This document shows, piece by piece, positions 26,639 through 51,468 of a stretch of DNA of 64,000 nt; the first letter of the stretch is position 1; each line of letters opens with the position of its first letter. The notes below the pieces were generated by a model, which made no database searches, was not told the DNA's origin, and was given only the letters and a program-made list of their open reading frames with translations. The translations under genes were made by a program, and so were the position numbers. Origin of the DNA: Candidatus Aenigmatarchaeota archaeon (lineage in GTDB: Archaea > Aenigmatarchaeota > Aenigmatarchaeia > QMZS01). Where the stretch lies: positions 146,167 to 210,166 of the forward strand of contig JAFGCN010000009.1 of NCBI GenBank assembly GCA_016932615.1, in the 5' to 3' direction.

Positions 26639-28921
26639 CTATTCAAAGGGGTTTTCAGTAAGGGGATTTACGCCATGCCCTTCAGTTTTTATATACTCCT
26701 TGAACCAGGCAAGCCACCTTTGGTAAATCTCCTTTGTGTCAAGCGTTCCGGTCTCTTTCTTTACATTCTCGCTCATGATGTGAAACATGTTGTTGGAGAG
26801 CACTACCGTGTTTGCCTCCATAAGCTCCGGGTTGTTTGTCTGGATTGCCATATCGGCAACGGTTTTCATCACGTTTGCCCTCAAGGTAATGTTTCCCCAG
26901 ACAGAATCCCACTCGTTTCTCCACTCCTTTACGTTTCGGGCGATTGAGTTTATAAGCTCGCTTTCGCCTGCAAGAAGGGTCGGCGTCGGCTCAAGCTCGT
27001 CGGTCTTTGCATTGTACTCCATCAGGTTTATGAACCCTTTTTCCTTTGCGGGGTCGGACTGCCAGTGCTTTCGGACCTCGGTTATCTCGACAGTCCTCCT
27101 GAATGACCTCATCCCGTCAGCGGATTTCAGCGAGTTGTTGATTACCACCAGGTCAGTTGCCTTAAATGAAGTGGGCGGGACTTTTAGGTCGTTAACGACC
27201 CTGTCGAAGAGCCCGAATGCGCTGTCGCCGTGGATGGTTCCTGCAACGACGTTAGCCATAGCGCCGATACGCATTGCCTCGTAAAGGGCCAGGGCCTCCT
27301 TGCTTCTTACCTCACCGATAATAAGGCAGGAGTCTCCAAGACGAAGCGATACTCGAAGGGCTTCTTCTGCAGGGAGCTCTGTTTCAACCATAGTAATTAC
27401 TGACCTTGATTTGAGCCGGGTGACATTGTAGCCAAGCTCCCTGAATTTGGTGAGGGGAAGCTCAAGCGTGTCCTCGACAGAGATTATCCTTTTGTTTTTC
27501 ATTATCTGCGTGATGATAGCCGCCAAAAGAGAGGTTTTTCCGGCGCTTCTGGTTCCACCAACAAGTAGAGTCCTTCCGCCGTCGACAATAAACCATAATA
27601 GGCCTGCGGCAAGGGGAGTCATCATCTTCTGCGTAAGGAAAAGCGGCATTGTCCAGGGCCTTTCACGGTGCCGCCTTAGCGCAAAGCCAAGGCCCCCCGG
27701 GGATAGCGACTGCATTATCGCGCAAATCCTTGCCCGGCCGCCGGGGATGGAAAGCTCAGTGTCGAGAACAGGGTTTGCCTCATCAAGCGGCCGGCCGGAG
27801 GAAAGGCGAAGGCGGGTGGCGAGAAGCTCTGCGTCTTCGGGAGTGAGAACGATGTTTGTCCTGCATTCGCCGAACTTTCCGTGCAGAAGGTAGATTGGAG
27901 AAGTGCCTGGCGGGGCGTTTACGTAAACATCCTGCACGTTGTCGTCAGAAAGTATAAGCTCCAGTATCCCGATTCCTGCAGTGTACCTGACAAGAACCCT
28001 TGCAATAATCTTGAGGCGGTCATCTTCCAAAGTCATGTTGTCCTGTGACGCGATTTCCCTGAGCATGTCAAGCCCGATGTTGTAGAAGCTTTGCCTTACC
28101 TCTTCGGAAGCAAGCTCTTCACGCTCCATTGGGCGGTGGTTTGCCATGTACCTCCTTGCCTTGTCGAGAAGATTGTATTCGTCCTCCTCAAGCCGGAATT
28201 CTATTGGCACGAGCTGGTAAAGGCACCTCACTTCCCGGGGTATTCTATATATCTCGACTTTTGCGTCAGTTACCTTGTAGCTGTCAATAAGCTCCGACTG
28301 GTCGGGAGGCGTTGCCATGTATTTCGTGTAGGTGAACCTCGGCCTTACTGAAGGTATGAATAGCTGCCGGTAGATAGTCCTCTCGCCTACCTTGTAGCCA
28401 GGAAGAAGGTCCTGGGCTTTTCTTATGAGCTTTGTCTCCTCGAGGAGGTCTCTTAGAGGAATGAGCGCATTATTAAGGTAGTGGGCATAGCAATCTTTGC
28501 ATATTCCTTTTGTCCTTTCAGAGAGGACTTTCAGATGGCGTATTTTTCGTATTAGCTTTACATAAGCGCCTACCGGGTCGGACTTCAGCTTTATCAGCAC
28601 GAGGTTTCGGAGAAAATCCAGCCGCTCGGAAACGCACCTGTCGCACTTGGTTGTCACAAGGTTTCCATAAGAAGTAGTCTTGAGGTCGCGGGTCGACCTT
28701 TCGATTGCCCTTGCGATTTCGACAAGCATCTGGGTCTGCTCAAAGTCGTACTCGTATTCCCTGTCCTTTACAAGTATGATTGCATTTGCATCCTTTACTG
28801 CCATTAGGTGGTTTATTACGGCGGACATGCATTGGGGGAAGTCCTCTATGGAAGAGCTGTAGATGCACTTCATGCAGTCGATTTTAAGAATATTGTTTTT
28901 GAAAGTGTACTCGCAGGGCAT
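26639..28921 (-). CDS. Secretion/pilus assembly ATPase of the GspE/VirB11/FlaI family, with an N-terminal Cys-rich (zinc-ribbon-like) extension.
   Basis: Walker A GGTRSAGKTS and the conserved core of type II/IV secretion NTPases. The N-terminus contains a CxxC...CxxC arrangement (MPCEYTF..CMKC...CDRC). Confidence 0.75.
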   Translation of the reverse strand: MPCEYTFKNNILKIDCMKCIYSSSIEDFPQCMSAVINHLMAVKDANAIILVKDREYEYDFEQTQMLVEIARAIERSTRDLKTTSYGNLVTTKCDRCVSERLDFLRNLVLIKLKSDPVGAYVKLIRKIRHLKVLSERTKGICKDCYAHYLNNALIPLRDLLEETKLIRKAQDLLPGYKVGERTIYRQLFIPSVRPRFTYTKYMATPPDQSELIDSYKVTDAKVEIYRIPREVRCLYQLVPIEFRLEEDEYNLLDKARRYMANHRPMEREELASEEVRQSFYNIGLDMLREIASQDNMTLEDDRLKIIARVLVRYTAGIGILELILSDDNVQDVYVNAPPGTSPIYLLHGKFGECRTNIVLTPEDAELLATRLRLSSGRPLDEANPVLDTELSIPGGRARICAIMQSLSPGGLGFALRRHRERPWTMPLFLTQKMMTPLAAGLLWFIVDGGRTLLVGGTRSAGKTSLLAAIITQIMKNKRIISVEDTLELPLTKFRELGYNVTRLKSRSVITMVETELPAEEALRVSLRLGDSCLIIGEVRSKEALALYEAMRIGAMANVVAGTIHGDSAFGLFDRVVNDLKVPPTSFKATDLVVINNSLKSADGMRSFRRTVEITEVRKHWQSDPAKEKGFINLMEYNAKTDELEPTPTLLAGESELINSIARNVKEWRNEWDSVWGNITLRANVMKTVADMAIQTNNPELMEANTVVLSNNMFHIMSENVKKETGTLDTKEIYQRWLAWFKEYIKTEGHGVNPLTENPFE

Positions 28922-29020
28922 AACTAGATAGATATAATTTATGATTTAGTGAACTTTATGCCTCTGCCCCACTTCAGGGGTTTTCCCGAAGGGCACACTT
29001 GTTTTGCATCTGGATAATGG

Positions 29021-29032
29021 ATAATATATAAA
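29021..29032 (+). promoter_or_regulatory. TATA-like box (ataaTATATAAA) upstream of the 29048 coiled-coil gene, in a divergent intergenic region shared with the secretion ATPase gene.
   Basis: An A/T box ~20-25 nt upstream of the ATG, consistent with archaeal leaderless transcripts. Confidence 0.3.
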
Positions 29033-29047
29033 TGGCTAAAACATATT

Positions 29048-29452
29048 ATGGGTGATAATGCTCAGGATGCTTTAGTTCTTCAAGAGCTTGTCCGGCGGGC
29101 CAACAGCCACACTCAGCGGCTCAGGACTCTTGACGAGCAATTCAGGACATTCAACACGAAATTCGAGACAATCGACCAGCAAAAGCTAAAGACAGAGTCT
29201 CTTGTTTCGGAGAGGTTTTCAAAGGTGGAAAAGCAACTTTCAGAAATCGAGCAAACGCTTGCCGAGTTAAAAAATGACCTCCTTAAAGTCCACGAAAAGG
29301 AAAAGCTGTTCGCAAAGAAAACTGAAGTAGAGGAGCTTTCTGAGCTGATAAATCTTTTGTCCCCGATTAAGCACGAGTTCGTGACATGGAATGAATTCAA
29401 TCGGGAGATGAAAAAACTTAAAGCTGACGATGCACTTACCGTTCGGTCATAA
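29048..29452 (+). CDS. Small coiled-coil protein.
   Basis: Heptad-rich E/K/L sequence. Divergent from the ATPase gene, with a TATA-like box upstream. Confidence 0.45.
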   Translation: MGDNAQDALVLQELVRRANSHTQRLRTLDEQFRTFNTKFETIDQQKLKTESLVSERFSKVEKQLSEIEQTLAELKNDLLKVHEKEKLFAKKTEVEELSELINLLSPIKHEFVTWNEFNREMKKLKADDALTVRS

Positions 29453-30299
29453 GGGTGAAGAAACCGGGACTATCCCGATAGAGGATGTAAAGCGTCTCAA
29501 GTCCCAGGGAAAGGCAGACAGAGAGATAATAGTAGAGTTGAAAAAGCAGGGCCACTCTTTCGAGTCGATAGAAAAGGCGATGCTTCAGGTTTTAAGAAAC
29601 AGCCCCGGCCAGCAGCCGCTTCAGGGCGGCATGAACCCCGGGATGAACCCGGGAATGGCTCCCCGGCCAGGAATGGGCCCTGGAGGTCCGCCTCAGCAGA
29701 GGGGGCCAATGGGGCCTCCAATGGGCGGCCAGCAGGGATTCCAGGGAGGGGGCGGACCCGGAATGGCTGGCGCAAGGCTGCCTTACCCTCAGCAGGGTAT
29801 GCAGGGGGGACCGCCTCAGGGAATGGTGCAGCGTCCAATGGGCATGGCTCCCCAGCAGATGCCGCCCCAGGCGCCAAACCTTGCGACAAGGGAAACGCTG
29901 ATGCCTCAGCCGAATATGAATATCCAGGTTGGTGGCGGCGTTGTCCCTTTGGAGGCAGAGGCAGGGAACCCGACAGACATAATAGAGGAGGTTGTCGAAG
30001 GAGTCGTCGAGGAAAAGTTCGAGAAGGCCGACCAGAAGTTTGAGTTTTTGAATAAGGAGCTTGGCAAGATTCGCGAGGAAAACGAGTCCCTGAAAAACCT
30101 GATGCTTTCTTCCCTTCAGAAGAGGGACAAGAATCTGGACGAGCTTAAGCAGAGCTTATCCGCAACCAAGGAGGAGCTTGAAGATATGGTCATAAAATGC
30201 AACGCGCTTGAAAAGGCATTCAAGCAGTTCCTGCCGGAGCTTGCGGAAAAGGTGCGAACGCAAAATACTGAGAAGAAGGTTGAAACGACTCCGCAATAG
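29430..30299 (+). CDS. Protein with a low-complexity G/P/Q/M-rich (prion-like) segment and a C-terminal coiled coil.
   Basis: GMNPGMNPGMAPRPGMGPGGPPQQRGPMGPPMGGQQGFQGGGGPGMAG... followed by EKFEKADQKFEFLNKELGKIREENESLKN. The start overlaps the upstream gene by 23 nt. Confidence 0.45.
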   Translation: MHLPFGHKGEETGTIPIEDVKRLKSQGKADREIIVELKKQGHSFESIEKAMLQVLRNSPGQQPLQGGMNPGMNPGMAPRPGMGPGGPPQQRGPMGPPMGGQQGFQGGGGPGMAGARLPYPQQGMQGGPPQGMVQRPMGMAPQQMPPQAPNLATRETLMPQPNMNIQVGGGVVPLEAEAGNPTDIIEEVVEGVVEEKFEKADQKFEFLNKELGKIREENESLKNLMLSSLQKRDKNLDELKQSLSATKEELEDMVIKCNALEKAFKQFLPELAEKVRTQNTEKKVETTPQ

Positions 30300-30345
30300 T
30301 TATCCCTATAGAAAGAATCAAATACAATACTTTTGAGGATATATT

Positions 30346-31929
30346 ATGGTTGATTTTGGACGTCCTGAACTTGGCTTTAGGTTTCACCATGCTGTGGAAA
30401 TACTAAATGACGCAATCAGAAACGAGCCCGCCCTTAGGAAATTCAGGGAAAAGAATTTTATCGTGAAAGACGAAACTATCCTGAATCATGACCATCAACT
30501 AAATGAGATGTGCAAGGTCTTGGGTTATTCTTATCTGCCCCATAATGCTAATAAGGTAGTTTCTGAGATATGGAATATTTACGGTGCCGTATTTGAGTTT
30601 GTAGATCACTTCGAGCGGGATGGCTACTCCAAGGCAGGGGGACCTTCAGACGTTTTATGGAAAACCGACTCGGTTAATGTACTTTCCGAACTGCGCCAGC
30701 GCCTTGCTGGAGAGGGAATTACAGAGCAGCACCTCACTGCCGCCCTTTCCGGTTTTGGGGGGCATGGCGGCGGAGGTGGAGGGGGCGCCGCTCCGGCTGG
30801 CTCGAACCCGGCAGAAGGCGCGGCGCATGAAGCAAAAAACGCAGCGGAAAAAGCTGAGGAAGCTGCGGAAAAGGTAGAGGAAGAAGAAAAGAAGCTCGAG
30901 CTTGATGAGAAGAAAATTAAGGAAGAGGAAGAAGAGCTTAAGAAAACATTTGACAGCATAGAAAAGCACAAGCTGCACAACCTCGAGCAAAAGGAGATAA
31001 AGGAAATCGAATCGGGGGGCAAGAGGTCCTTTAGGAGGTTTTCTCTAGGTACTGTCCGTTTGATGAGCAAGATTCACTTCGACGCGTTTTTGACTCTTGG
31101 AGGAATGCTTTTTGGAGGATACCTGACTGTCGGGGGCTACTTTGTGATGGGTCTTCCCGTCTTTATTGCCTCTGCGCTTATCGGGTGGAGGAACGGATAC
31201 TTCCGCAACATTGTAAACTCATTTTTGAGGCCTGCAGGGGACTTTGCGATGAGCAGCATTCCGCTTTCGATACTTGTGTTTATTGCTGGCTGGTACTTCG
31301 TGAGGTTTTTCACAATGGCGGCAAATATCGAGATGTTTGACACCTTCCAGTTTTCCCTCATTGCTTTTGCTAATACCTTATTTTTGATTTACCTTTGGGT
31401 TGGAGCGACTCCCAAGGACACATTGCCAGTAATGTTGCCAAGAAAAGAGCCAGCGCCGTCGGGTTCCGGTGGAGGAACTCCTGCTTCGGCAAGCCCGGCA
31501 GATAAGAGGGGCGCCGAAGAGAAGACTGAGGATGGAGTGAATGGGGGTTCTGAAGGAGGGTCTAAGGAGGGTGGACCTCCAGTGGTCAGGAGACTTGGTG
31601 GAACCTCCAAGAGTGTGGGTTCAGATGCTTATTTGGACCAGCAGGACATATCCCCCGAAGAAAGGGCGCTTAGGGAACAGGAAATAGAGAACAAAATGCA
31701 GAGGGAGATGCGTGATTTCAATAATGAGCAGGAGAAGCGTACAGAGCAGAAAATGGAGTCTGCCTTTGCGGGTCTTGAAATGATGGAAAAACAGGCAGAG
31801 GAAGAGAAAAAGCTTGAGGAAGAGCGGCTCAAGAAGGAGCGAGAGGCATTTAGGGAAGAAAAGGAAATGGTAGACAAAACAGTTTCGGAGGCAAGGAGAG
31901 CGCAAAGGTCTCCTAACTCCGGGTGGTGA
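30346..31929 (+). CDS. Membrane protein with about four central TM helices, flanked by a Gly run and K/E-rich coiled-coil tails.
   Basis: GGHGGGGGGGAAP, EEEKKLELDEKKIKEEEEELKK, and the TM cluster FLTLGGMLFGGYLTVGGYFVMGLPVFIASALIGW...LSILVFIAGWYFV. Confidence 0.45.
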   Translation: MVDFGRPELGFRFHHAVEILNDAIRNEPALRKFREKNFIVKDETILNHDHQLNEMCKVLGYSYLPHNANKVVSEIWNIYGAVFEFVDHFERDGYSKAGGPSDVLWKTDSVNVLSELRQRLAGEGITEQHLTAALSGFGGHGGGGGGGAAPAGSNPAEGAAHEAKNAAEKAEEAAEKVEEEEKKLELDEKKIKEEEEELKKTFDSIEKHKLHNLEQKEIKEIESGGKRSFRRFSLGTVRLMSKIHFDAFLTLGGMLFGGYLTVGGYFVMGLPVFIASALIGWRNGYFRNIVNSFLRPAGDFAMSSIPLSILVFIAGWYFVRFFTMAANIEMFDTFQFSLIAFANTLFLIYLWVGATPKDTLPVMLPRKEPAPSGSGGGTPASASPADKRGAEEKTEDGVNGGSEGGSKEGGPPVVRRLGGTSKSVGSDAYLDQQDISPEERALREQEIENKMQREMRDFNNEQEKRTEQKMESAFAGLEMMEKQAEEEKKLEEERLKKEREAFREEKEMVDKTVSEARRAQRSPNSGW

Positions 31930-31931
31930 CT

Positions 31932-33728
31932 ATGGTAGACCAAACCGTTTTCATTGTGGGGGGCGTAGTTTTTGTCGTAATCTTAGTTTACCTTATTTCC
32001 ATACGGGACCGGCTATATTTCAAAAAGACCGATGCTGATTCCTACTGGAGAGGCGCGGGAAGAGAGCCATATAACCGGTCGCTTCCGAACGCAACAATCT
32101 GCGGCATTATAATTTCGCTTTGCACGATGCTTTTTTTGAACTACTTCCATGACTGGAACGGGCTTGGGGGGATGGTTGTAATTGACGCAGTCCTTGTTTT
32201 GCTTGTCGCTTACCCCGCGAGAAATCCCCTTCTTGCTGTTGGCGTCTTGGCTGCTTTTGTCCTTCCTGTCGGCTACTTTGGCTACGGTACTTATGCTGAA
32301 TATATAATCACGCCCCTGACAGAAGCGACGGGAGTCGAAAATTTCGATGAGCTGAAAACAATGACCTCGCACACGCTTCACTGCACACTTCTCATAATGA
32401 CCGACCAGCAGGCATACGATGAGGAGTGCGTGATGAATGACCAGCAAAAGGAGGTCGAGCAGCAGCCCGAAGACCTGGGGCTTGAAGTTACCGGCAAAAG
32501 AATCTTCCCTGAAAAGGAAATCGCTGCCGGCGACCCGATTGAGATTTCCCTTGAGTTTGAAAACCAGGGCGGCTATGAGGCAAAAAACGTGGAGATTTCG
32601 GTAGACACGACTGAAGACGTGAAATTCAGGGTCTGCGAGGAAGAGGTATTCAAGGAAGTCCTAAGTAAGCCGAGCCAGAAACACGAGCTTGTAAGGCCGA
32701 CCGAGAACGGCCAATACCGGCTTATTGGCAAGGTTTCTGACCCCTGGATGATTGACAACTGCACATACGCAAAAAACAAGCCGTTTATAACCGCGAAAAT
32801 GAGGACCCTTTTCTCGTATGACTATGAGACTGAGGCAAAGCTGCCTCTTGAGATAATAAAGAGTTTGAATGAAACCCACCAGTATAATGTTGTTACTGCA
32901 AAGGAAGCGGCAGCTCCGATGGCAATTCTCATGCACACTACAACTCCTCTTTCCGCGGAAGACACCGACTACAATTACCGTATAATACAGGTGCGGCTCC
33001 AGAAGGACTATGACGGCGGAACGATAACTTTCAGGGGCAAGTATGACACTATGGACAGCATCTACCGGGTTGGCGATGGGGCTTTGGATACACTTTACAA
33101 AGCATATGAGGATTACCCCGAAAACCCCATTTCATCTGAGTGGAAATGGATTAAGGGTTCTGAGTATTATGACTTCTGCGTTGACAAGGCAGACCCCACA
33201 AAGAGGATTTCCGCAAAAGACGCGCTTGACTGCGCAAGTGAGCATTATCAGTCATGTCAGGATGGTGAAGACCCTGCAAAAACAATTGCCGCAACCGATG
33301 CAGAGGACTGCCACAATAAGCGGGGAACGCCGGTGATAATTACCGGAGAGCCGATTTACAAGGCAAGGGCGCAAATGGAAAGGTCCGGGACGGTTATGGA
33401 TGAAGTGACAATTACTTGCGCGGGCGGCGACAACTGCCAATACCTTGCGCTAAGCTGCAATGGCCAGGCAAGCGAAGAAGAAGGAACCGGCGGCTGCATC
33501 TGCCAGGACGGGGTATGCACGATCAAGTATGTTGGCGGCAAAGGAGACCTCAGGCTGGAAAAGAAGGGCGACCCGGAAATATTATACGGGCGGCTGAAGG
33601 TTGAGGTCACTGGGTTCCCTGACGATGGCCTGTCCAATACAATCACAGTAGATCTCCGGGCAAAGGCGACGTATAATGTGCTTTACGATGACGCAACCAC
33701 TATGACTATTATAAGCCCCCACCAGTAA
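31932..33728 (+). CDS. Membrane protein with about four N-terminal TM helices and a large Cys-rich extracytoplasmic domain.
   Basis: The ORF-track start at 31923 is GTG. The ATG at 31932 sits 2 nt after the upstream stop. Cys-rich C-terminus (CAGGDNCQYLALSCNGQASEEEGTGGCICQDGVC). Confidence 0.5.
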   Translation: MVDQTVFIVGGVVFVVILVYLISIRDRLYFKKTDADSYWRGAGREPYNRSLPNATICGIIISLCTMLFLNYFHDWNGLGGMVVIDAVLVLLVAYPARNPLLAVGVLAAFVLPVGYFGYGTYAEYIITPLTEATGVENFDELKTMTSHTLHCTLLIMTDQQAYDEECVMNDQQKEVEQQPEDLGLEVTGKRIFPEKEIAAGDPIEISLEFENQGGYEAKNVEISVDTTEDVKFRVCEEEVFKEVLSKPSQKHELVRPTENGQYRLIGKVSDPWMIDNCTYAKNKPFITAKMRTLFSYDYETEAKLPLEIIKSLNETHQYNVVTAKEAAAPMAILMHTTTPLSAEDTDYNYRIIQVRLQKDYDGGTITFRGKYDTMDSIYRVGDGALDTLYKAYEDYPENPISSEWKWIKGSEYYDFCVDKADPTKRISAKDALDCASEHYQSCQDGEDPAKTIAATDAEDCHNKRGTPVIITGEPIYKARAQMERSGTVMDEVTITCAGGDNCQYLALSCNGQASEEEGTGGCICQDGVCTIKYVGGKGDLRLEKKGDPEILYGRLKVEVTGFPDDGLSNTITVDLRAKATYNVLYDDATTMTIISPHQ

Positions 33729-34107: not shown

Positions 34108-34824
34108 ATGCTATACCTGATTGGAGCGGGGCTGTGGGATGAGGGAGACATAGCCCTCAAAGGTCTTGAAGCTGCCCGGAAGTGCAGCAGGGTTTATTTT
34201 GAGAGGTACACAAGCTTGTGGAAGGGAGACCTTGAAAAGATTGGGCTGAAGGCAGAGGATTTTGCCAGGCCTGACATGGAGGATAATATGTCAAAACTCA
34301 TTGGCGAGGCAAAGGAAAAAGATGTATGTGTTCTCGTGCCGGGTGACCCCCTGATTGCCACGACGCACTCGTCAATCATTACTGAAGCCAGAAAGGAGGG
34401 CGTTAAGGTGGAAGTAATCCACTCAAGCTCCATATTTTCAGCCCTTGGCGAGACGGGCCTGCAGGTCTACAAGTTTGGCAGGACTGCCACGATTCCCCAC
34501 TACGAGACCGATGCGCCATATAAGATTTTGGAGCAGAACCTGTGGATAGGGGCGCACTCTCTCTTTTTGCTGGATATTCAGGGCCAGGAGCTTATGAAGT
34601 GCTCGGAAGGGCTAAAGAAGCTTCTTGAGATGGAGGGGCGGGGCAAAAAGGGCATAATCTCCGAGGACACGGAAGTGCTTGTCTTTTGCAGGGCAGGAAG
34701 CCCCGAAAAAGCGCTGAAGTGGGGCAAAGTCCGGGATTTTCTTGATTTTGACTGCACATTATGCGTGATTATTGTCCCGGGGCCGCTTCATTTTGCTGAG
34801 AGGGAGTACTTAGAGCAGCTTTAA
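34108..34824 (+). CDS. dph5: Diphthine synthase, the EF-2 diphthamide biosynthesis methyltransferase (tetrapyrrole-methylase fold).
   Basis: MLYLIGAGLWDEGDIALKGLEAARKCSRVYFERYTS is the characteristic N-terminus of diphthine synthases. Confidence 0.8.
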   Translation: MLYLIGAGLWDEGDIALKGLEAARKCSRVYFERYTSLWKGDLEKIGLKAEDFARPDMEDNMSKLIGEAKEKDVCVLVPGDPLIATTHSSIITEARKEGVKVEVIHSSSIFSALGETGLQVYKFGRTATIPHYETDAPYKILEQNLWIGAHSLFLLDIQGQELMKCSEGLKKLLEMEGRGKKGIISEDTEVLVFCRAGSPEKALKWGKVRDFLDFDCTLCVIIVPGPLHFAEREYLEQL

Positions 34825-34861
34825 AGATGGGGTTTTAAGTTTATTTCCTAACCTACTTTAT

Positions 34862-35126
34862 GCCCCTGTAGTCTAGCTCGGTCCAGGATATCGCCCTTTC
34901 GAGCAGGCCCTTCTTTGAAAAGGAGGCCTGGCGCACCCAAGAAAACATATTTCAAGGGATGGGAAAGGTTTGAGGCCGAACAGGCCGATGACAAGGAGAC
35001 AGGCGGAGACCCGGGGTCATTCCTTCTTTTAGAAAAAGAAGGTCTGACAACTCCAAGAAAAGGAGGTTACCGCTTCGCGAAATTCAGACGTGAAGTGGGT
35101 AGGGAATTCAAATCCCGGCAGGGGCA
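34862..35126 (+). tRNA. tRNA-Glu(UUC) with two long introns: ~99 nt after position 37 of the anticodon loop (34902..35000), and ~91 nt in the T-arm between the T-stem and T-loop (35016..35106).
   Basis: Acceptor GCCCCTG (34862-34868) pairs with CAGGGGC (35119-35125). Anticodon stem TCGCC/GGCGG with loop CTTTCG|..|A. T-stem CCGGG (35011-15) pairs with CCCGG (35114-18), with the canonical T-loop TTCAAAT. Discriminator A. The pairings were found by eye only. Confidence 0.6.
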
Positions 35127-35167
35127 AATTTCAAATTCAGTCTTTTAAACTAAATAGTGATTTATAG

Positions 35168-35359
35168 ATGGAAGGAACAGTAAAATTCTTCAATGTAATG
35201 AAGAACTTTGGGTTCATAAGCGGTGAAGACGGAAAGGACTACTTTGTTCACTCAAGCGCGTTGAAAGAAGGCACTATGCTTGGCGAGGGAGACAAGGTTT
35301 CTTTTGAGCCGGTACGAGGCGACAAAGGAATGAAGGCAGAAAAAGTTCAGAAATTATAG
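35168..35359 (+). CDS. csp: Cold-shock domain protein (CspA family).
   Basis: GTVKFFNVMKNFGFISGEDGKDYFVHSSAL...EGDKVSFEPVRGDKGMKA aligns with the CspA RNP1/RNP2 motifs (KGFGFI, VFVHF). Confidence 0.75.
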   Translation: MEGTVKFFNVMKNFGFISGEDGKDYFVHSSALKEGTMLGEGDKVSFEPVRGDKGMKAEKVQKL

Positions 35360-39347: not shown

Positions 39348-39446
39348 GCCCTAGTAGCTCAGCTGGTTGAAGCTTGCCTTCAGGCTTCCGGCAAAGAGCG
39401 CGGGTTTCGTAAACCCGAGGTCGGGGGTTCGATCCCCCCCTAGGGC
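39348..39446 (+). tRNA. tRNA-Thr(CGU)-like gene, 99 nt. The canonical cloverleaf is interrupted by a ~25-nt insertion (non-canonical intron) inside the D-loop.
   Basis: Acceptor GCCCTAG/CTAGGGC. D-stem GCTC...GAGC separated by 35 nt instead of ~10. Anticodon arm CGGGT-TTCGTAA-ACCCG (U33, anticodon CGT, A37). Variable loop AGGTC. T-arm GGGGG-TTCGATC-CCCCC. A Leu(CAG) type-II fold was considered and is less consistent. Confidence 0.55.
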
Positions 39447-39556
39447 TATAATGTTTATCATGAGGACATTTCACCCGTAATGCTCCCGTTATGCAATCAT
39501 CTTCGAAAGTCCGAAATGATATATAACGTTTGAGGCAGTTATGATTATAGGATAAA

Positions 39557-42500
39557 ATGTCCAAAATATTTTTCGATGGGGGCAGTATTTCAAAAATTTT
39601 CCTTGCCTTCCTATTTGCGTTTTCACTTAATATTGCCTCGGTATCTGCGGCTTCTATATCAGGCCAATTTGAAGTGTCTGACACTATTACAAACCTAGGC
39701 ACTGTGGACTCAAGCAGGATTTCAAATATAATTTTGGACCGGGGGAGCGATGTGGTCTGGAGGGTATACCCTACGGGATACTGGAACTTGGGAGAATATC
39801 ACTTCTATGCAAAACTGGACAAGGTTTCAGGTAAGATTTACCTCCTTGCAAATTCTTCAAGCGAAGGCTCAGCCCTGGGTGTCATGATGCCTTCCATAAA
39901 TCTGCAGGATCGTTTTGGCCTTAGCCAGACCCCAGACTACACGCATTTTTGCGCTCAATATGATTCCACAAAGACTCTTTCTTATGATGTGCTTGCTCAG
40001 ACGGTTACAAGCCTAGCCTCCAGTGGTGCAATAGGGTCCGGAGCAACTCTATCAAAGGCACCGGTTTACAAAAGCAACTTCACGGACGGAGTTTATGTGC
40101 TCGGGTACTACATTTCTGCTTCTGAATTCGATGCTACCTCAAACAGCTTCCACAACTGGCCTTGGGGCACTGGAAGTGACGCATGCAAGTACTCAATTCT
40201 CTTTCCGATATGCGAATATAGCGAGGGTTCTGTAAGTGTGACCTTCAATATCGATAGCAGCCCAAGAAACTACCTGGTGTATGGTAGCCTATACAATGAC
40301 AACAATGAGAATACTTATTACCGGTATAATGGCGTCACATGGTTGCAGCGAAGCTACTGGGGACTGACCAATCAGGTAAGGTATGGCTCTTCTTCGGGCT
40401 ATCCCCAGCAAATAGAATTGTATGCAAGCAAGACCTGGTCAACAGTACACCCTTCAACTTGGATAGTGCTCGATACTGATTCAGTCAGTGTAACTGGAAC
40501 TCTGGCTGGGCAGGGCCCAACCAGTGTCAATGAAGCTGAAGCCCCAGACGTGCTTTACAAATTTAGCGTCACGAAAGCACCTCTTGATTGGCTTGAGGGC
40601 TCGGTGAGGAGAACAATAATAATAAACAACAGCGAGAGTTCCGAGGATCTTGCAAATTATCCTGTGTTGCTGCAGGTTCCTTATGATTTTTTCATGAGGC
40701 AGGATTATGGCGACCTTAGGTTTACTGACCTTGGCGAAAGCCCGTTAAATTACTGGATAGAGTCTTACAACGTAAGCTCTGCCGTTGTGTGGGTAAAGAT
40801 TCCATCAATTCCTGCTGGTGGAGAGACATCCATTTATATGTATTATGGTAACTCGACTCTCACGAACATTGGCAATGGCAACTTGGTTTTCCCTTTCTTT
40901 GAGGATTTCAATGACGGAAGTCTGGATCCATACTGGACCAAAGTCAATTCAGAGGCCAATATTTTTGAGAATAATGGGTATCTGGAGACTCCGGAATGCG
41001 GGGTTCCGGGAGAGGCAGACTGCAAATATGGATATGCTTTTGTTTACATGAACGCCGCTTCCAATGGAATCAGTATTAATCAGCCATTCAGGATAAAGCT
41101 GAAGACCTGGAACAAGGAGGACAGCGCTGGCGGTGAAGGGGCAGGAACTTTCATGTTCCGGGAAGTGCCTTACGTTGGAATTAACCCTAATGCAGTCTAT
41201 TTTTTGCATGGTGACCGGAATAATTATCCGGGGTTCTATGAAGGCCATGATGGGCCACTGAGTTTTGGAATTTACTCGCCGATGCAGGATAGGTGGATTT
41301 CTGAAGAATTCCTATATGACGGGAGTGGAATGGGTCTTTGGTTTGACGGGACAAAAAGAAGCACCACTGCATGGGCTTCTGCTGAGGGGTACGTTTCTCT
41401 TGGAAATTCAATAGGCAGCGATTCCTATTCGACAGACAACAATAAATGGGACGACCTATTCATGATGCAGGTGGCATCAAAAGAGCCAGTCGTGAAGCTT
41501 GGAGATATTGAAACTGGCGATGGAACAGAGGAACCCATTCAGAACATAATTTCCGCAAATATTTTGCTTTTTGATGAGGAATATAACCCACTATATTCCA
41601 GTATTGGTCAAGAAGAATCCACCGCATATTTGACTTTGAAAAAACCGCATTACTTAGATATCTTAGTCAATGGTACCGTTTCTACAGATTCGCAGATTAG
41701 TGTAGAACTTTATCAGGGGAGCACGCTTAAATTTTCGGAAGACTTGGACACAATAATACAGCAGGAGGGTTCATATGCCTATATAAAATCGGGTGAGATT
41801 TTCTCTGTTCCGGAAAGCGCAGGCATTGGCTCTGGATATAAATTAGTGGTTAAGCTGGGAGATTATGTATTGAATCAGGAGGTTTATCTTACTCCTTTTG
41901 AGGCTGTGCCGATTGATGTTTTTGGCCAGGAATATCCTGTGGCTGGAGAGGTCAGGTATTATGATATAAAGCCCTATGAGTTGAGCCATAACGGGAATGA
42001 AGTGGTGATTGCCTACCCGATTTTTGAGCAGCAATATTTCGAAAGCCTTAGTGATGAAGGATTTGGTGTTTCCGACCCGGAAAGAGTTAAAGCCTTGGTG
42101 CAAAAGCTGTCCGTGCTTGAGTTAGTGGGTTTGACGGAAGTTGCGGCAAAATATCCAAATGCCCGGTTTGTGGTTTTTAACGGGTTGAAAGGAGATGCTG
42201 AAGTAATCTCTCAGGTAGAAGGAAACATAAAGTCCGCAAGAGCATCAAACAAAAAGCCGCTCATAGTTGGTGCGATACCCCATGCAACCCAAACCTACAG
42301 CAATATAGTCACTACTAAGGCATACCGATCTTCATATATGAGTTATGCTTTGGCTTCTTCCATTAATGTTCTCAGAACCTGGGGAGGCGAAGACAGAGAA
42401 ACTTTTGTTTCAAGGCATTATCGGGGTGAAGAATACTTCCTTGCTTTAAATTCGACTGGAAAGTATTCAAAAGAAAGCTTTGGTGACCGGACCGAATCTC

Positions 42501-45500
42501 AGCCGGCGATGCTTGTGGCAATAGACGAAAATCCACTGCTTCAGGTGTCTCCTGCGATTGGCAATGACGCTAGAGATGAGGCTGGAAAGGATAATTATGA
42601 CTATTACCGAATTGGGACCTTAATTCCTCTAGGACATACCTATTACTTAGGTCTTGAAGCAGGAAAGTTCCCCCTTGCAGAGTTTAGCCTGAATCCTTCG
42701 ATGGCAGGATTAAAGTTTGGAAGAACCATTTTTAACTTCGGTCTTGAATTTGGAATAAATGCCGAGAGGACAGAAGACCGTGGGAAGATTTATGCCTATT
42801 TGGATATTGGTGCCATAATTACGGGTTTCCATGAAGAGTGGGACCTTTGGAAGGGAGCTATTAATGTGAATACGATTGACCAGGATGTCCAGCAGGGGGT
42901 TGACGATATTTGCGATATAGATACAGTTGTTCTTGGAAAAGTTGGAGATATTGAAATTGAAAATACCAACCTTAGAGGCATAATGACTTCTTTCAAGGAC
43001 ATTGTACTCTTCCTGTTTGTCCCAGAACCTGTGATTGCCAGGAATGAATTCCTGAGGTATGGATTTGAGCCTAGCAGTGTTCATACCTTGCTGGCAGATA
43101 CAACAAAGACGATGGCAACGCATAATCAGCCTGTTTCAGACACGGTTGTCTATGAGGCAGACAATTATCCTTCCAAGATGAGCCTGAATAATGCTGCAAT
43201 GAATCTTGCTGCCTTTGTCATAGACCTTGTGGAGTTTGGTGAGGGTGTGCTTCCGGTTGAGATTGAGCCAAGCCTCGAGGGTAAGATGCATATGGAGAAC
43301 TATCTCGGGTCTTCAGATAGCATCAATTCAATAATAGTTTCTGAAGACGTTGCTCTCACCTTGAGAGGTCTTGCCGTAGATGTTATTGAAGATCCTTGGG
43401 CAGATGTTCCTAGTGACATTAAAGATGTCGCTGGATACCTTAAAGATGAAACTTTTAAGTCCGTTGATGTCTTTGAGGAGATAACTCTTTCCGGATACGA
43501 GTATATCTCGGTAAGTATGGAGTATTTGGAATATAGCAGGTATGAAGATTTCGCAAGTGGGTTAGTGGAAGAATACCTCTACTATGAGTCCCTTGAGATG
43601 GAGTATATGGAGGTCTGGACCTCAAAAGTCAAGGTCAAGACAGGAACCATAGATTACGAGAAAATCAAGAAATACCTGAAATGGGTTAAGATTATTGCTG
43701 CAGGACTCGATGCATGGCTTCAGTACGAAGAGGCACAGAAGGTTGCAGGGTTCAATTCCAACCAGCTTTACTATATGGGTGACCCATACCTTACCGGTTA
43801 TGATGACCCGGTTTACAGCTTTTCGGTGGACGCTTTGCCTGAGCAGGTGCAAATACACATAAGGTCTGAGCCAAGGTTGATGGAGGTTATGGACACAAGT
43901 ATGATTTATCCAAGCGTGACCGAACTCGAGATACCAGATATGACTGCAAAAGTGCTGGTAGAAGATTATACTCCCTACACAGGAGCCCCTCAGACGCCAA
44001 GTTTCATAATCTCAATATTTCACCCCAGAAATCAGGAGATCTACAATATTTCCTATGGGCTCTTAAGTCCCCAGAATTTTGAAAATGTAGACCTTGCAAT
44101 GGGGGCTCTGGTTGTCGGTGAGGAGAGCCTTCCGGGCTTGATACCAGAATATGAATACTATCCGAAAGAAAGCCTGGTTTCCAGCACGGAAGATGTTGCA
44201 AATTATGCCCATACTGTGATCATGCTGTTCCCAACTAAGTATTACTCAGACAAGCACTTGGACTACTACAAGGATGTCTGGCTTAACTTCAGTGTTATGA
44301 CTCGTTCTACAGAGCTAAATACTGAGCTTCAAGTGTATCCAAATGTAGTGGTCACAGAAAGAGGTTCTGAGACTAAGGTTACTCTGCGTCTAGTCAATGA
44401 TATACTTTCCGGTGAAAATACCGCAGTAAATGTTACCTTTAGGGTGCCCGAAGGGATACTGCTTGGGGGAGGCGACCTAGAGAATGTGGTGCTTGGCAAT
44501 ACCCCCTCTGATTACAGCAGGGACTTTTTGTATGAAGTAAGCATTCCCGCAAGCACGGAGCTAGGGGCGTATTATATAAATATGAACCTTTCTGGATATG
44601 AAGGTTCGGAAAGGATTTACAGGGACTATGCGCTTCCAGTTATTGTTACTCGCAGGGACTTGGTGGACAATAATCTGCTTGAGTGGACAGTTCCTCCCAG
44701 GATGCAGATGGGAGTCGAGAATAAAGTTTCAGTGAAGGTAAGAAACGACGGAGAAATTAAAAATGTAGCCCTTCCAGTGAGACTTTTTCTAAACGATGAG
44801 CTAATTGATACACAAACAATAGGCATTATTGGTCCTGGCGAAGTTGTTGAACTGAACTTTACCGTTGTTCCTGAGCTAACTGGTCTAAGCAACCTTACCA
44901 TTGCAGTGGTTTCAGCGCCCAACGAGTTTGAGCTTGAAAACAACATTAAGTCGGCATTGGTTGAAGTGTCTGAGGATATATGCCCTCCAATGATAACTCT
45001 CGCCACACCTTCAGATGGAGCCGTTTACTTCCTCAACCAGCAGGTCCTTGCCGATTACGAATGCACCGACGCTCTCAGCGGAGTCACCTCATGCACGGGA
45101 GCGGTTGAACTCGGAAGCCTAATTGACACTGCAAGCCTTGGCATTAAGTCCTTTACGGTTGCTTCAGCAGATAATGCGGGTAACACTGCAGAAAAAACTG
45201 TCTCCTACAGCGTCCAGTATTCTTACAGCGGAATCCTCAGGCCAATTGACCCCGATGGCACAAGTGTCTTCAAGCTCGGAAGCACGGTTCCGGTAAAGTT
45301 TAAGCTAACTGACGCTAGTGGGAACTTTGTTAAGACTGCGGTTGCAAAAATTTACCTGTCTAAAATAAGCAATGGCGTTATGGGAACAGAGGTTGATGCT
45401 GTGTCTACAAGCCAGGCTTCGACGGGAAACCTGTTTAGGTATGATGAAACTGCTAACCAATACGTGTTTAATCTTGCTACAAAATCTATGACGGTTGGAA

Positions 45501-45565
45501 CCTGGAAGATAAGAATTTTGCTGGATGATGGCACTTCCCGGTATGTAACCCTGGGCCTCAGGTAA
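39557..45565 (+). CDS. Giant secreted surface protein (2002 aa) with a signal peptide. It shares a jelly-roll-type module with the first giant protein and has Big-like domains near the C-terminus. No C-terminal TM.
   Basis: Signal MSKIF...LAFLFAFSLNIASVSA. The module IYMYYGNSTLTN...FPFFEDFNDGSLDPYW parallels VYMYYNNSGVST...FLLFDDFNDASLDTDKW in the 1..5327 protein. Confidence 0.7.
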   Translation: MSKIFFDGGSISKIFLAFLFAFSLNIASVSAASISGQFEVSDTITNLGTVDSSRISNIILDRGSDVVWRVYPTGYWNLGEYHFYAKLDKVSGKIYLLANSSSEGSALGVMMPSINLQDRFGLSQTPDYTHFCAQYDSTKTLSYDVLAQTVTSLASSGAIGSGATLSKAPVYKSNFTDGVYVLGYYISASEFDATSNSFHNWPWGTGSDACKYSILFPICEYSEGSVSVTFNIDSSPRNYLVYGSLYNDNNENTYYRYNGVTWLQRSYWGLTNQVRYGSSSGYPQQIELYASKTWSTVHPSTWIVLDTDSVSVTGTLAGQGPTSVNEAEAPDVLYKFSVTKAPLDWLEGSVRRTIIINNSESSEDLANYPVLLQVPYDFFMRQDYGDLRFTDLGESPLNYWIESYNVSSAVVWVKIPSIPAGGETSIYMYYGNSTLTNIGNGNLVFPFFEDFNDGSLDPYWTKVNSEANIFENNGYLETPECGVPGEADCKYGYAFVYMNAASNGISINQPFRIKLKTWNKEDSAGGEGAGTFMFREVPYVGINPNAVYFLHGDRNNYPGFYEGHDGPLSFGIYSPMQDRWISEEFLYDGSGMGLWFDGTKRSTTAWASAEGYVSLGNSIGSDSYSTDNNKWDDLFMMQVASKEPVVKLGDIETGDGTEEPIQNIISANILLFDEEYNPLYSSIGQEESTAYLTLKKPHYLDILVNGTVSTDSQISVELYQGSTLKFSEDLDTIIQQEGSYAYIKSGEIFSVPESAGIGSGYKLVVKLGDYVLNQEVYLTPFEAVPIDVFGQEYPVAGEVRYYDIKPYELSHNGNEVVIAYPIFEQQYFESLSDEGFGVSDPERVKALVQKLSVLELVGLTEVAAKYPNARFVVFNGLKGDAEVISQVEGNIKSARASNKKPLIVGAIPHATQTYSNIVTTKAYRSSYMSYALASSINVLRTWGGEDRETFVSRHYRGEEYFLALNSTGKYSKESFGDRTESQPAMLVAIDENPLLQVSPAIGNDARDEAGKDNYDYYRIGTLIPLGHTYYLGLEAGKFPLAEFSLNPSMAGLKFGRTIFNFGLEFGINAERTEDRGKIYAYLDIGAIITGFHEEWDLWKGAINVNTIDQDVQQGVDDICDIDTVVLGKVGDIEIENTNLRGIMTSFKDIVLFLFVPEPVIARNEFLRYGFEPSSVHTLLADTTKTMATHNQPVSDTVVYEADNYPSKMSLNNAAMNLAAFVIDLVEFGEGVLPVEIEPSLEGKMHMENYLGSSDSINSIIVSEDVALTLRGLAVDVIEDPWADVPSDIKDVAGYLKDETFKSVDVFEEITLSGYEYISVSMEYLEYSRYEDFASGLVEEYLYYESLEMEYMEVWTSKVKVKTGTIDYEKIKKYLKWVKIIAAGLDAWLQYEEAQKVAGFNSNQLYYMGDPYLTGYDDPVYSFSVDALPEQVQIHIRSEPRLMEVMDTSMIYPSVTELEIPDMTAKVLVEDYTPYTGAPQTPSFIISIFHPRNQEIYNISYGLLSPQNFENVDLAMGALVVGEESLPGLIPEYEYYPKESLVSSTEDVANYAHTVIMLFPTKYYSDKHLDYYKDVWLNFSVMTRSTELNTELQVYPNVVVTERGSETKVTLRLVNDILSGENTAVNVTFRVPEGILLGGGDLENVVLGNTPSDYSRDFLYEVSIPASTELGAYYINMNLSGYEGSERIYRDYALPVIVTRRDLVDNNLLEWTVPPRMQMGVENKVSVKVRNDGEIKNVALPVRLFLNDELIDTQTIGIIGPGEVVELNFTVVPELTGLSNLTIAVVSAPNEFELENNIKSALVEVSEDICPPMITLATPSDGAVYFLNQQVLADYECTDALSGVTSCTGAVELGSLIDTASLGIKSFTVASADNAGNTAEKTVSYSVQYSYSGILRPIDPDGTSVFKLGSTVPVKFKLTDASGNFVKTAVAKIYLSKISNGVMGTEVDAVSTSQASTGNLFRYDETANQYVFNLATKSMTVGTWKIRILLDDGTSRYVTLGLR

Positions 45566-45651: not shown

Positions 45652-46305
45652 CTATTGCTTGAGCTCTGCCCGCCTCTGATTTTTTCTTGCAGGAAGAAAG
45701 CGCCTGAAAAAATTACGGATGTAACCGATTATAATTACCAGCGCAAGTATTCCCCAGAGGTTTGAAAGCAAAATTTCAGAAATTGCTGACAGTGCTTCGG
45801 TCTTTGGCACTGCGTTTATGACTTCGACAACTTTTGCAAATATCCAGGCGACAATTATCGTGCTTATCCCTGCCGCAATAGGTGACACCATCCACCAGCT
45901 TTTTTCATACCTTCTTGAAAGGTAATCCGTGTAGCCAAAAAACAGGGAAAATGCGAAAAACCAGTTTAAGTTTGCAGCCAGAAAGTCAGCCATTGACATC
46001 ACAAAGCTGCTCTGGAGGAGCGTGTTCATTATCCGCATGATAAATATCCCGAATGCCAGGAGGACTATCCCGATTATGCTTGCAAGAAACGGCCCGATTA
46101 TGCTGAGATCTCCAAACCAGTAGCACGTACCGGAAATCCCGCAATTTCTGATCCGTTTCTTTGCTCTCGCGCCGATGTCTTCGGCCTCTTCGCCAAGTTC
46201 CTTTGCCCGCCTTTCCATGACATTGCCAAACTCATCGCCCCATTCGTTCCATTCCCTTTCGGTTTTGCCAAAAACTTTTTTCGGCCGGGGAGATTTATTT
46301 TCCAT
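45652..46305 (-). CDS. Integral membrane protein, hypothetical.
   Basis: Several hydrophobic helices after a charged N-terminus. Confidence 0.4.
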   Translation of the reverse strand: MENKSPRPKKVFGKTEREWNEWGDEFGNVMERRAKELGEEAEDIGARAKKRIRNCGISGTCYWFGDLSIIGPFLASIIGIVLLAFGIFIMRIMNTLLQSSFVMSMADFLAANLNWFFAFSLFFGYTDYLSRRYEKSWWMVSPIAAGISTIIVAWIFAKVVEVINAVPKTEALSAISEILLSNLWGILALVIIIGYIRNFFRRFLPARKNQRRAELKQ

Positions 46306-46327
46306 CGTCCTATAATAGTATATATAC

Positions 46328-47137
46328 TTATCTAGAGAATACCCTCCTGAGAAGGATTATGGCCAGAAATATGGAGAGGTTAACGAGGACAATGGTTCCG
46401 GATACCGCAAAGTCAAAGTAGTATGCGGCCACAAGCCCCAAAACAACGGAAAGCACGGCGATTGCAGCAGATGAGATGAGGGTATTTCTGAAGCTGAGCT
46501 TTAGCTGCAGTGCAGAGGTGGCGGGCATAATTATCAGGGCTGAAGCGAGAAGAAGTCCAACAACCCTCATTGAGCTTACGACGGTTACTGCGGTAAGAGC
46601 GATAAGGGCAGTGTTCAGGGCATCAACTTTCACGCCAGAGGTTCTTGCCGAATCTTCGTCAAAAGTAAGGTAGACAAGCTCGCGGTAGAAAAGCGCGATA
46701 ACTCCGATTACGCAGGCGGAAAGAAACACTGAGAGCAGGACCTCCTCGCTTCTTATAGACAGGATGCTTCCGAAAAGGTAGCTTAGAATGTCCACGTTGA
46801 ACCCGCCTGCAATGCTTGCAATGAATACGCCTATTCCAAGGCCCGCATGGCTTACCATGCCTATTGCAGCGTCCCCGTACAGCCGGGCTTTTTCCCTAAG
46901 CTTCAGGATTCCAAGTGAACCGATTACCCCGAAAATCAGGGCACCAAAAAAAGGCATTATGTTGAAAAGAAGCCCGGTTGCAATGCCTCCAAATGATATG
47001 TGAGCAATCCCGTCACCCATAAGGGCGTACCTCCTGAGGACCAGGAAAACGCCAAGAAGAGAGCAGGCAATGGCGATAACTATCCCGGTTAAAAATGCCT
47101 TTTGCATAAACCCATATCCGATAATTTCGAAAACCAT
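46328..47137 (-). CDS. znuB: Zinc/manganese ABC transporter permease (ZnuB/TroCD family).
   Basis: Polytopic membrane protein typical of ABC-3 permeases. The ORF-track start at 47158 is TTG, and the ATG (MVFEIIGYG) at 47137 is more likely. Forms an operon with znuC and znuA. Confidence 0.7.
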   Translation of the reverse strand: MVFEIIGYGFMQKAFLTGIVIAIACSLLGVFLVLRRYALMGDGIAHISFGGIATGLLFNIMPFFGALIFGVIGSLGILKLREKARLYGDAAIGMVSHAGLGIGVFIASIAGGFNVDILSYLFGSILSIRSEEVLLSVFLSACVIGVIALFYRELVYLTFDEDSARTSGVKVDALNTALIALTAVTVVSSMRVVGLLLASALIIMPATSALQLKLSFRNTLISSAAIAVLSVVLGLVAAYYFDFAVSGTIVLVNLSIFLAIILLRRVFSR

Positions 47138-47139
47138 AT

Positions 47140-47889: not shown

Positions 47890-47895
47890 ATTGAT

Positions 47896-48876: not shown

Positions 48877-48918
48877 CCTTCAAAATAAGATATTAGTGAT
48901 TATCGGGCGAATATTTAC

Positions 48919-49644: not shown

Positions 49645-49818
49645 GCATTAACCTTTTCCGGCATATTTCGCACTATTCCGCATTTTTTCAGGGAACTTAT
49701 ATGGGCTGTTCCGCCGAAGTGGGCTTATGCCTGCCGCCCGATGCCGGAAGCGAAAAGAAATGGGCCATAGCAAATAGCGCATATCAGGCAAGTGGGCGGA
49801 AAGGCATGTAAGAAAAAT

Positions 49819-50415: not shown

Positions 50416-50514
50416 GAAGCAGCTTTTCTCTAGACCGAAGCGATTTTGTTTTCTTTTTTGTTTTTATTGCAGACCTTATCTGGAGCTGATTTGTATATTT
50501 GCAATAATTAGAGG

Positions 50515-51342: not shown

Positions 51343-51468
51343 AATTAACTTCTGCTATGAGATATACTTTCCAAAATCTGTAGGGCTCTAGGGATACAGG
51401 AAAATCGTTTCTGTAGTGTAAACTGCCCAAAATACCCGTTCCACCTTGTTCCGCCTAACCTATTTATA

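Follow-up and report, generated by a model that had tools for sequence, protein, structure and literature searches.

Interrupted transfer RNA (tRNA) genes have been described in several groups of archaea. In the DPANN archaeon ARMAN-2, introns are found at positions 53/54 and 59/60, including two within one T-arm, and the splicing endonuclease EndA of this organism cuts both canonical (37/38) and 59/60 introns in vitro (PMC3239211). Among DPANN EndAs, presence of the extra L3 loop is correlated with disruption of tRNA genes, and the tRNAs missing from DPANN genomes have been predicted to represent 'unidentified disrupted tRNA genes' (PMC5829648). In Methanopyrus kandleri, pre-tRNA-Glu(UUC) contains a canonical intron together with a D-loop intron of the HBh' class (PMC5829648, PMC3695527). 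Multi-intron tRNAs and large-scale tRNA intron transposition are reported for Thermoproteales (Fujishima et al. 2010, as summarized in PMC4090602 and PMC4033280), and the euryarchaeal pre-tRNA-Trp intron houses a box C/D guide RNA responsible for Cm34 and Um39 (PMC4090602, PMC7994747). Here we analyze a tRNA-Glu(UUC) gene interrupted by two long introns, located in a 64,000-nt stretch of contig JAFGCN010000009.1 (hereafter, the window; G+C ~48%) from a metagenome-assembled genome (MAG) of Aenigmarchaeota, a DPANN lineage. Its anatomy and conservation make it very probable that this is a functional gene whose two introns would be removed by endonuclease splicing.

In silico removal of 34902-35000 and 35016-35106 yields a 75-nt product that ARAGORN calls tRNA-Glu(ttc), drawn as a canonical tRNA with acceptor, anticodon and T-stems of 7, 5 and 5 bp, UUCAAAU in the T-loop and A as the discriminator; the gene encodes no CCA. 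All parts lie on the plus strand, with exon limits taken from the ARAGORN call on the spliced product and from covariation. Exon 1 (34862-34901, tRNA positions 1-37) comprises the 5' strand of the acceptor stem, the D-arm and the 5' strand of the anticodon stem, with the anticodon UUC at 34898-34900. Exon 2 (35001-35015, positions 38-53) holds the 3' strand of the anticodon stem, the variable loop and the T-stem 5' strand CCGGG, while exon 3 (35107-35126, positions 54-73) supplies the T-loop, the 3' strands of the T-stem and acceptor stem, and the discriminator. Intron 1 (34902-35000, 99 nt) occupies the canonical 37/38 site, and intron 2 (35016-35106, 91 nt) separates the T-stem 5' strand from the T-loop at 53/54. 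An earlier note on this DNA had proposed this tRNA identity, both intron positions and all of the coordinates and stems, which the ARAGORN call on the spliced 75-mer bears out.

The unspliced locus receives no ARAGORN call and no Rfam match, either at the gathering threshold or at E<=10. When intron 2 alone is removed, ARAGORN finds the gene with a 99-nt canonical intron; when intron 1 alone is removed, the gene is still missed. The same note had described two spurious open reading frames (ORFs) across the RNA. The verdict holds, but for one frame rather than two: no ORF of 60 aa or more covers the RNA apart from a 77-aa ORF with a TTG start (34915-35148). As a coding sequence it was rejected, given that the stop-free stretches shrink to 28 aa in orthologues and tblastn matches are fragmentary. 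Read from the sequence, an A/T-rich, TATA-like box, TTTTAAGTTTATTT (34833-34846, plus strand), precedes tRNA position 1 by 16-29 nt, and a similar box, TTTAAGTTT(A/C)TTT, stands at a matching distance (~16-30 nt) ahead of tRNA-Glu in the orthologous contigs L002, L004, L013 and L019. A short T-run follows the gene at 35143-35146. The box and the T-run are likely the promoter and terminator of a monocistronic precursor.

Orthologues were gathered from contigs encoding diphthine-synthase homologues (59-72% identity) and by exon and junction pattern scans of genome and metagenome collections. Matches to the exon-1 pattern in the genome collection came from Aenigmatarchaeota MAGs in every case except one, an uncultured archaeon. 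The searches produced 11 distinct versions of the gene (the window plus 10 from related MAGs and metagenomes), mostly situated directly downstream of dphB. Two inserts are present in all 11, and their removal gives tRNA-Glu(ttc) in ARAGORN each time. Cloverleaf covariation, computed on six distinct mature sequences, revealed standard pairs in 126 out of 126 stem cells (21 stem pairs in each sequence). Compensatory double changes were found at five pairs whose halves reside in different exons: 2:71 and 3:70 (exon 1 with exon 3), two anticodon-stem pairs (exon 1 with exon 2) and one T-stem pair (exon 2 with exon 3). None of 500 shuffles matched the observed covariation score, and slid controls dropped to 38-58% paired. 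One further lineage (L007-L009, 4724-4830; L021, 3224-3330; DphB 62-63% identical) has no tRNA-Glu after dphB, where another gene on the opposite strand follows; in that lineage, tRNA-Glu must have its gene at another place.

Splice junctions were evaluated against the 3-4-3 core of the bulge-helix-bulge (BHB) motif, which consists of two 3-nt bulges separated by a 4-bp helix and is cut after the second base of each bulge (PMC3239211). Intron 1 is at 37/38 in 11/11 genes, and its length ranges from 48 nt (L010 and L020) and 49 nt (L022) up to 126 nt (L023), always retaining a kink-turn (k-turn)-like hairpin that is described below. The 3-4-3 core is present in all 11 with an identical layout. 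Helix h corresponds to the 5-bp anticodon stem, the central helix H pairs C32-U33-U34-U35 with G-R-A-G over 4 bp, and the bulges read C36 G37 ^ N on the 5' side and A-Y ^ A38 on the 3' side, with ^ marking the predicted cut. In the window, the 5' half of the core spans 34896-34902 (H strand C32-U35, 34896-34899; bulge C36 G37 ^ A, 34900-34902; predicted cut after 34901) and the 3' half spans 34995-35001 (H strand GGAG, 34995-34998; bulge A C ^ A38, 34999-35001; predicted cut after 35000), both on the plus strand. In the alignment of this intron (A1), h, H and the stem of the k-turn-like hairpin are 100% paired; 0 of 500 shuffles are as good, and slid controls reach 26-55%. The H register C32-N35 also applies to a tRNA-Ser intron on contig L019, in which C32-G35 pairs perfectly (CUUG/CAAG). 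One nucleotide after the 5' splice site begins hairpin A, GCAGGCCCUUCUUU...AAGGAGGCCUGGC (34903-34932, plus strand), a feature of the RNAalifold consensus that stands in for helix h'. Four of its pairs show double changes among five close orthologues in RNAalifold, and homologous modules occur in other introns.

The second intron differs in position among lineages, being at 53/54 in the window, L002, L004 and L019, at 54/55 in L013, and at 59/60, within the T-loop, in a sister clade formed by L010 (gene 4882-5122), L012, L015, L020, L022 and L023. In the 53/54 introns, H pairs C48-G51 with (A/U)GGG, the bulges are GG^N and NA^U, and h has 2 bp; H of L002 has four pairs. The window version, on the plus strand, has its 5' half at 35010-35016 (H strand C48-G51, 35010-35013; bulge G52 G53 ^ G, 35014-35016) and its 3' half at 35101-35107 (H strand AGGG, 35101-35104; bulge A A ^ U54, 35105-35107), and represents a relaxed form of the core with correct bulges and an imperfect H. 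The 54/55 intron of L013 has a perfect CCGG/CCGG H and a 3-bp h', while in the 59/60 introns h is the T-stem, H is UUCA/UGRR and the bulges are AA^N and AN^U; the 3-4-3 core is complete at both of these sites. A 54/55 register was also tried for L004 and L019 and was discarded, as H then fails to pair. Window intron 2 is made up of three hairpins (35016-35048, 35051-35065 and 35070-35098). A BHB motif can be folded at both junctions of the window gene, the point on which the earlier note had staked its proposal, in full core form at intron 1 (h 5 bp, H 4 bp, two 3-nt bulges) and in relaxed form at intron 2.

This arrangement can be compared with ARMAN-2, with which it shares the superphylum, the T-arm sites 53/54 and 59/60, BHB or relaxed BHB junctions, and genes missed by standard finders. 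Unlike in ARMAN-2, where the introns assayed were 13 and 25 nt (PMC3239211), those of the window measure 91-99 nt and each folds into three hairpins; the host phylum also differs, and here one canonical intron bears the k-turn-like hairpin. The view that T-arm introns are rare and known mainly from Thermoproteales and a few other archaea, taken in the earlier note, needs to be widened, since both 53/54 and 59/60 introns were already documented in this DPANN archaeon (PMC3239211). Lengths near 100 nt had been called unusual as well, and so they are, yet they fall within the known range and are explained by a modular, conserved hairpin architecture. M. kandleri tRNA-Glu(UUC) agrees with the present gene in identity and in combining one canonical with one non-canonical intron. 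Its second intron is in the D-loop, whereas here it is in the T-arm; its introns are short, with no kinship between the two reported. EndA-dependent removal was demonstrated in vitro and seen in RNA-seq for M. kandleri, while for the window gene it is predicted from the sequence.

Comparison of the introns with one another indicates that they belong together. The two window introns have their first ~45 nt in common, a kinship overlooked in the earlier reading, as was the conserved k-turn-like hairpin of intron 1. Intron 1 of L023 (37/38) is near-identical to window intron 2 (53/54) over the first 37 nt (score 69, z 11.5), and intron 1 of L019 also resembles window intron 2 (z 12.9). Intron 2 of L013 (54/55) is similar to intron 2 of L004 (53/54; z 8.7) and to intron 2 of L015 (59/60; z 6.4). 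The similarity extends to a second tRNA species: on contig L019, a tRNA-Ser(UGA) gene (3656-3812, plus strand) is interrupted at the canonical site by a 75-nt intron whose BHB core is strict (h 5 bp; H CUUG/CAAG), and this intron matches tRNA-Glu intron 1 of the same contig (score 70, z 15). The first ~50 nt of this tRNA-Ser intron are homologous to tRNA-Glu intron 1, and it is devoid of the k-turn hairpin. What the introns have in common is a 5' hairpin module of the form GUCA(G/U)-[CUUCUUU...AAGAAG stem]-(U/C)YGAC-AC-YCC-AAGAAA. It counts against this homology, and against the overall account built on it, that the z values derive from mononucleotide shuffles of low-complexity hairpins, so that the weaker ones (z 3-6) are soft.

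Similar introns are thus found at different positions and in different tRNA species (Glu and Ser), and the sharing of the module between intron sites and the tRNA-Ser intron points to a mobile family like that of Thermoproteales. We infer a single structured family that would have spread among 37/38, 53/54, 54/55 and 59/60 and between Glu and Ser genes. The position of intron 2 follows the DphB clades, with 53/54 or 54/55 in the ~70% identity group and 59/60 in the ~60% group. This distribution suggests one relocation between clades plus a 1-nt slide in L013, although intron 2 may instead have been inserted independently. As far as the accounts citing the Thermoproteales study go, the resemblance lies in implied intron gain by transposition guided by BHB requirements; those hosts are TACK hyperthermophiles with an (alpha-beta)2 EndA, unlike the present one, where the family is distributed within one orthologous gene at four sites in sister clades and the common part is a defined 5' hairpin module. 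Additional copies of the module in the window were limited to chance-level matches, and the exon-1 and module-A patterns had no matches in viral contigs. Long modular introns of a mobile family, joined with a conserved k-turn-like hairpin, take this gene beyond the textbook case.

The 3' third of intron 1 is its only strongly conserved segment, with the consensus GAARGG-U-N-UGA-[3-4 bp stem, 4-6 nt loop]-(G/U)AU-GA-N3-GRAG-AY^. The k-turn-like hairpin of the window occupies 34971-34991 on the plus strand and is composed of UGA (34971-34973), GGCC (34974-34977), the loop GAACA (34978-34982) and GGCC (34983-34986), followed on the 3' side (34987-34991) by the 3-nt bulge GAU (34987-34989) and GA (34990-34991). 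The k-turn sequence signature UGA|stem ... stem|NAU|GA is found in 11/11 genes, with the GA dinucleotides of both strands and the A and U of the bulge invariant. Its C-stem covaries at three of four pairs (G-C to A-U at one, C-G to U-A at another and C-G to G-C at the fourth). The bulged strand corresponds to the RUGA core of box C and the opposite strand to the UGA of box D. The hairpin pattern occurs once in the 64-kb window, and in 243 kb of Aenigmarchaeota DNA it was found in tRNA-Glu intron 1 only. A looser, fixed-gap k-turn pattern gave 117 matches in viral contigs, all of them chance hits in phage coding DNA; four of these have a 3-bp stem, about the number expected. Our literature search retrieved no paper on Aenigmarchaeota tRNA introns or on a k-turn in a tRNA-Glu intron. 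On balance we favor reading the conserved hairpin as a genuine L7Ae k-turn, which would play an architectural role, probably together with L7Ae, at the three-way junction that stands in for h'.

The same nucleotides could alternatively form a regular helix with a symmetric 3x3 loop and tandem G.A pairs, serving as a clamp that positions the GRAG strand with no dedicated protein. RNAalifold does pair G92-C117, U93-A116 and U94.G115 around a UGA/GAU internal loop, and the non-canonical stem required by a k-turn is poor, because beyond the G.A pairs the positions 3b.3n and 4b.4n are C.U and then A-U, A.A or G.A. Against such a clamp, no change is seen at any of the four G/A positions or at the A and U of the bulge, where an ordinary helix would be expected to covary like the adjacent stem; in several lineages the outer helix is itself interrupted, with A or G facing G at position 94 and, in L023, G.A. 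These features leave the symmetric loop possible but doubtful, and the k-turn the better description of the hairpin.

A different role is brought up by the segment GAAAGG (34963-34968, plus strand), which in alignment A1 is nearly invariant as GAARGG in all orthologues and is complementary to C31-C36 of the anticodon loop. Under this proposal, GAARGG and the NUGA-hairpin-RUGA element of intron 1 would together serve as a cis-acting guide of a minimal, box C/D-like ('half-mer') type, which would pair with the anticodon loop and with which L7Ae, Nop5 and fibrillarin would 2'-O-methylate the wobble base U34 before splicing. GAARGG remains nearly unchanged across the 11 lineages as the rest of the intron diverges, and it ends one base ahead of the D-like NUGA, so that the fifth base upstream of this box, the third of GAAAGG (34965), would face U34 according to the N+5 rule; the bulged strand N-A-U-G-A, moreover, contains the box C core already noted. 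Position-34 C/D guides are known, one of them inside the tRNA-Trp intron, for C34 in Euryarchaeota (PMC7994747, PMC4090602). That intron and intron 1 are alike in being canonical introns of ~100 nt with an L7Ae-type k-turn motif (here at the sequence level) and a segment complementary to their own anticodon region, and in both the BHB and guide pairings are mutually exclusive. They are unlike in that a full set of C, D', C' and D boxes and two ~10-nt guides are present in the tRNA-Trp intron, compared with a single k-turn-like motif, non-consensus second box halves and a 6-nt complementarity here.

Most of the evidence speaks against guide activity. The complementarity, counted by hand from the alignment in the register that points at U34, amounts to 6 bp, at most 7, and competes with the anticodon stem and helix H; in L010, L020 and L022, GAAAGG can pair within the intron itself. 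The features of a box C/D sRNA (RUGAUGA, CUGA, C'/D' boxes and spacers of ~12 nt) are not found in intron 1, which has a single motif with no second C/D or C'/D' motif and no second k-turn. Where box C should end in UGA, a variable triplet (CAA, CAU, UAG or AAU) is found, and the D-like box is U/A/G-UGA instead of CUGA. Rfam returned no sRNA family even at E<=10, and the invariance of the anticodon makes covariation uninformative about pairing with it. A full C/D sRNA within intron 1 or across both introns was considered and dropped, with no C box 12 nt upstream of the D'-like box and no downstream D box; a CUGA in intron 2, examined as a D box, lies in a hairpin stem and is not conserved. With 6-7 bp only, no second C/D motif, and box halves for Nop5 recruitment that are not conserved, a guide function is quite unlikely. 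There is an outside chance, judging from GAARGG and the k-turn taken together, that intron 1 is a working part of tRNA-Glu maturation, whether through an L7Ae-shaped EndA junction or as an anticodon-masking U34 guide. If so, an intron function of this sort would be without precedent both outside tRNA-Trp and in DPANN, and it would account for the retention of a mobile intron in every lineage.

Under the preferred reading of a spliced, functional gene, tRNA-Glu(UUC) would be transcribed as a precursor of ~265 nt, from which EndA would excise two BHB-type introns; an RtcB-type ligase would then join the three exons, and CCA would be added later. At intron 1, the anticodon stem would act as h and C32-U35/GGAG as the central helix, with cuts after the second bulge base. 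The missing h' would be substituted by the module-A hairpin right at the 5' splice site and by the k-turn-like hairpin just before the 3' strand of H. L7Ae, by binding the k-turn-like element, would probably help so long an intron to offer a cleavable junction. Removal of intron 2 would proceed through a relaxed motif in competition with the T-stem.

Several observations weigh against this account. The strict hBHBh' form is not reached, since the intron ends do not make h' at either intron, nor do they in any orthologue, with the partial exceptions of L022 and L013; in addition, H of window intron 2 consists of CCC/GGG (three Watson-Crick pairs) plus a G.A mismatch, and its h has only 2 bp. 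These deficits place the introns in the relaxed classes (hBH or HBh'-like), which need a broad-specificity EndA (PMC3239211, PMC5829648). RNAalifold favors an H shifted by one base and draws the k-turn as a symmetric internal loop. The shifted register, U33-C36, is also given by RNAfold; checked by hand, it breaks in L002-type sequences and in tRNA-Ser, whereas C32-N35 holds everywhere. Folds constrained to contain the BHBs lie 2-14 kcal/mol above the minimum free energy (13.7 kcal/mol for the window sequence), a cost that is a caveat and not a refutation, because the energy model omits k-turns, tertiary contacts and proteins, and related introns cross-pair in silico. Minimum free energy folding of the whole precursor was set aside as uninformative owing to this artificial cross-pairing of the two introns. 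Lastly, none of the window ORFs tested proved to encode EndA, RtcB or L7Ae.

Could the locus instead be a decaying, non-functional tRNA pseudogene whose inserts are never removed? The silence of ARAGORN and Rfam, the standard finders, would fit. However, eleven diverged lineages (DphB identity down to ~59%) retain the 21 stem pairs with compensatory changes across the inserts, along with the splice-junction geometry and the upstream A/T box, and the inserts vary in length by indels while the exons are never damaged. Cloverleaf pairing and compensatory changes across introns rule out chance and leave a pseudogene highly improbable. A self-splicing (group I or II) nature of the inserts, or their descent from transposable elements, has a negligible probability: group I introns are known from archaea and from some bacterial tRNA genes (PMC6125680, PMC13011429), but at 41-126 nt these inserts are far below the size of a ribozyme core, have no Rfam intron match, terminal repeats or conserved ORF, and their junctions fit the 3-4-3 BHB geometry.

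The gene, very probably functional and endonuclease-spliced, has practical consequences for annotation, as an essential tRNA-Glu(UUC) is invisible to ARAGORN and Rfam, and Aenigmarchaeota MAGs annotated in this way would seem to lack it. The 11 orthologues constitute a natural series in which one family appears at 37/38, 53/54, 54/55 and 59/60 and in a tRNA-Ser gene, and they bear directly on how archaeal tRNA introns arose and how they move, a matter of long debate. Junctions in which an intron-internal hairpin and a k-turn-like element stand for h' also yield a prediction about recognition by DPANN EndA, possibly with L7Ae. The case is unsurprising in kind; being clean and conserved in multiple lineages, it is useful for annotation, intron movement and relaxed-junction recognition.

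One other tRNA gene of the window is also interrupted. A tRNA-Thr(CGU) gene (39348-39447, plus strand) contains a D-loop intron of 25-27 nt around 20/21, with a clean HBh' motif (H GCUG/CGGC or CUGG/CCGG; h' 4 bp). Default ARAGORN truncates this gene to 39376-39447 and, when introns are allowed, miscalls it as tRNA-Arg, while the Rfam tRNA model covers the full 100 nt with 58 bits. A scan for T-arms with acceptor complements, aimed at further intron-bearing tRNAs in the window, found tRNA-Thr only. Since the sole other tRNA of the window is interrupted too, the organism appears to carry and handle non-canonical introns routinely.

The tRNA-Glu gene is flanked on one side by the diphthine synthase gene dphB (34108-34824), whose product matches a protein from a 'Candidatus Aenigmarchaeota archaeon' MAG at 100% identity, and on the other by a cold-shock protein gene (35168-35359), with genes for Pth2, Sua5/YrdC, a cyclophilin and a T2SSE/FlaI-type ATPase nearby. 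In 26639-33728, this ATPase (760 aa, minus strand) adjoins four plus-strand ORFs without Pfam matches, two of which (29430-30299 and 30346-31929) encode low-complexity Gly/Pro/Gln- or Glu/Lys-rich proteins. The ORF order of this region is repeated in L001, L002 and L004, forming a conserved uncharacterised cluster upstream of pth2-dphB-tRNA-Glu.

Five very large ORFs are located at 105-5327, 5886-9194, 9899-18835 and 39557-45565 on the plus strand and 20493-23522 on the minus strand (1740, 1102, 2978, 2002 and 1009 aa, in the order given). A Pfam scan of two of them, the 1102-aa and 1009-aa ORFs, gave no match; all five are presumably surface or adhesion proteins, a common type in DPANN genomes. 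The right third of the window (45652-63871) encodes a ZnuABC-type metal transporter (46328-48876, minus strand), a MarR-type regulator, a MacB/FtsX ABC system (51469-54932), myo-inositol-1-phosphate synthase (58982-60085, minus strand) and an Fe/Mn superoxide dismutase (60520-61152), the last of which hints at exposure to oxygen.

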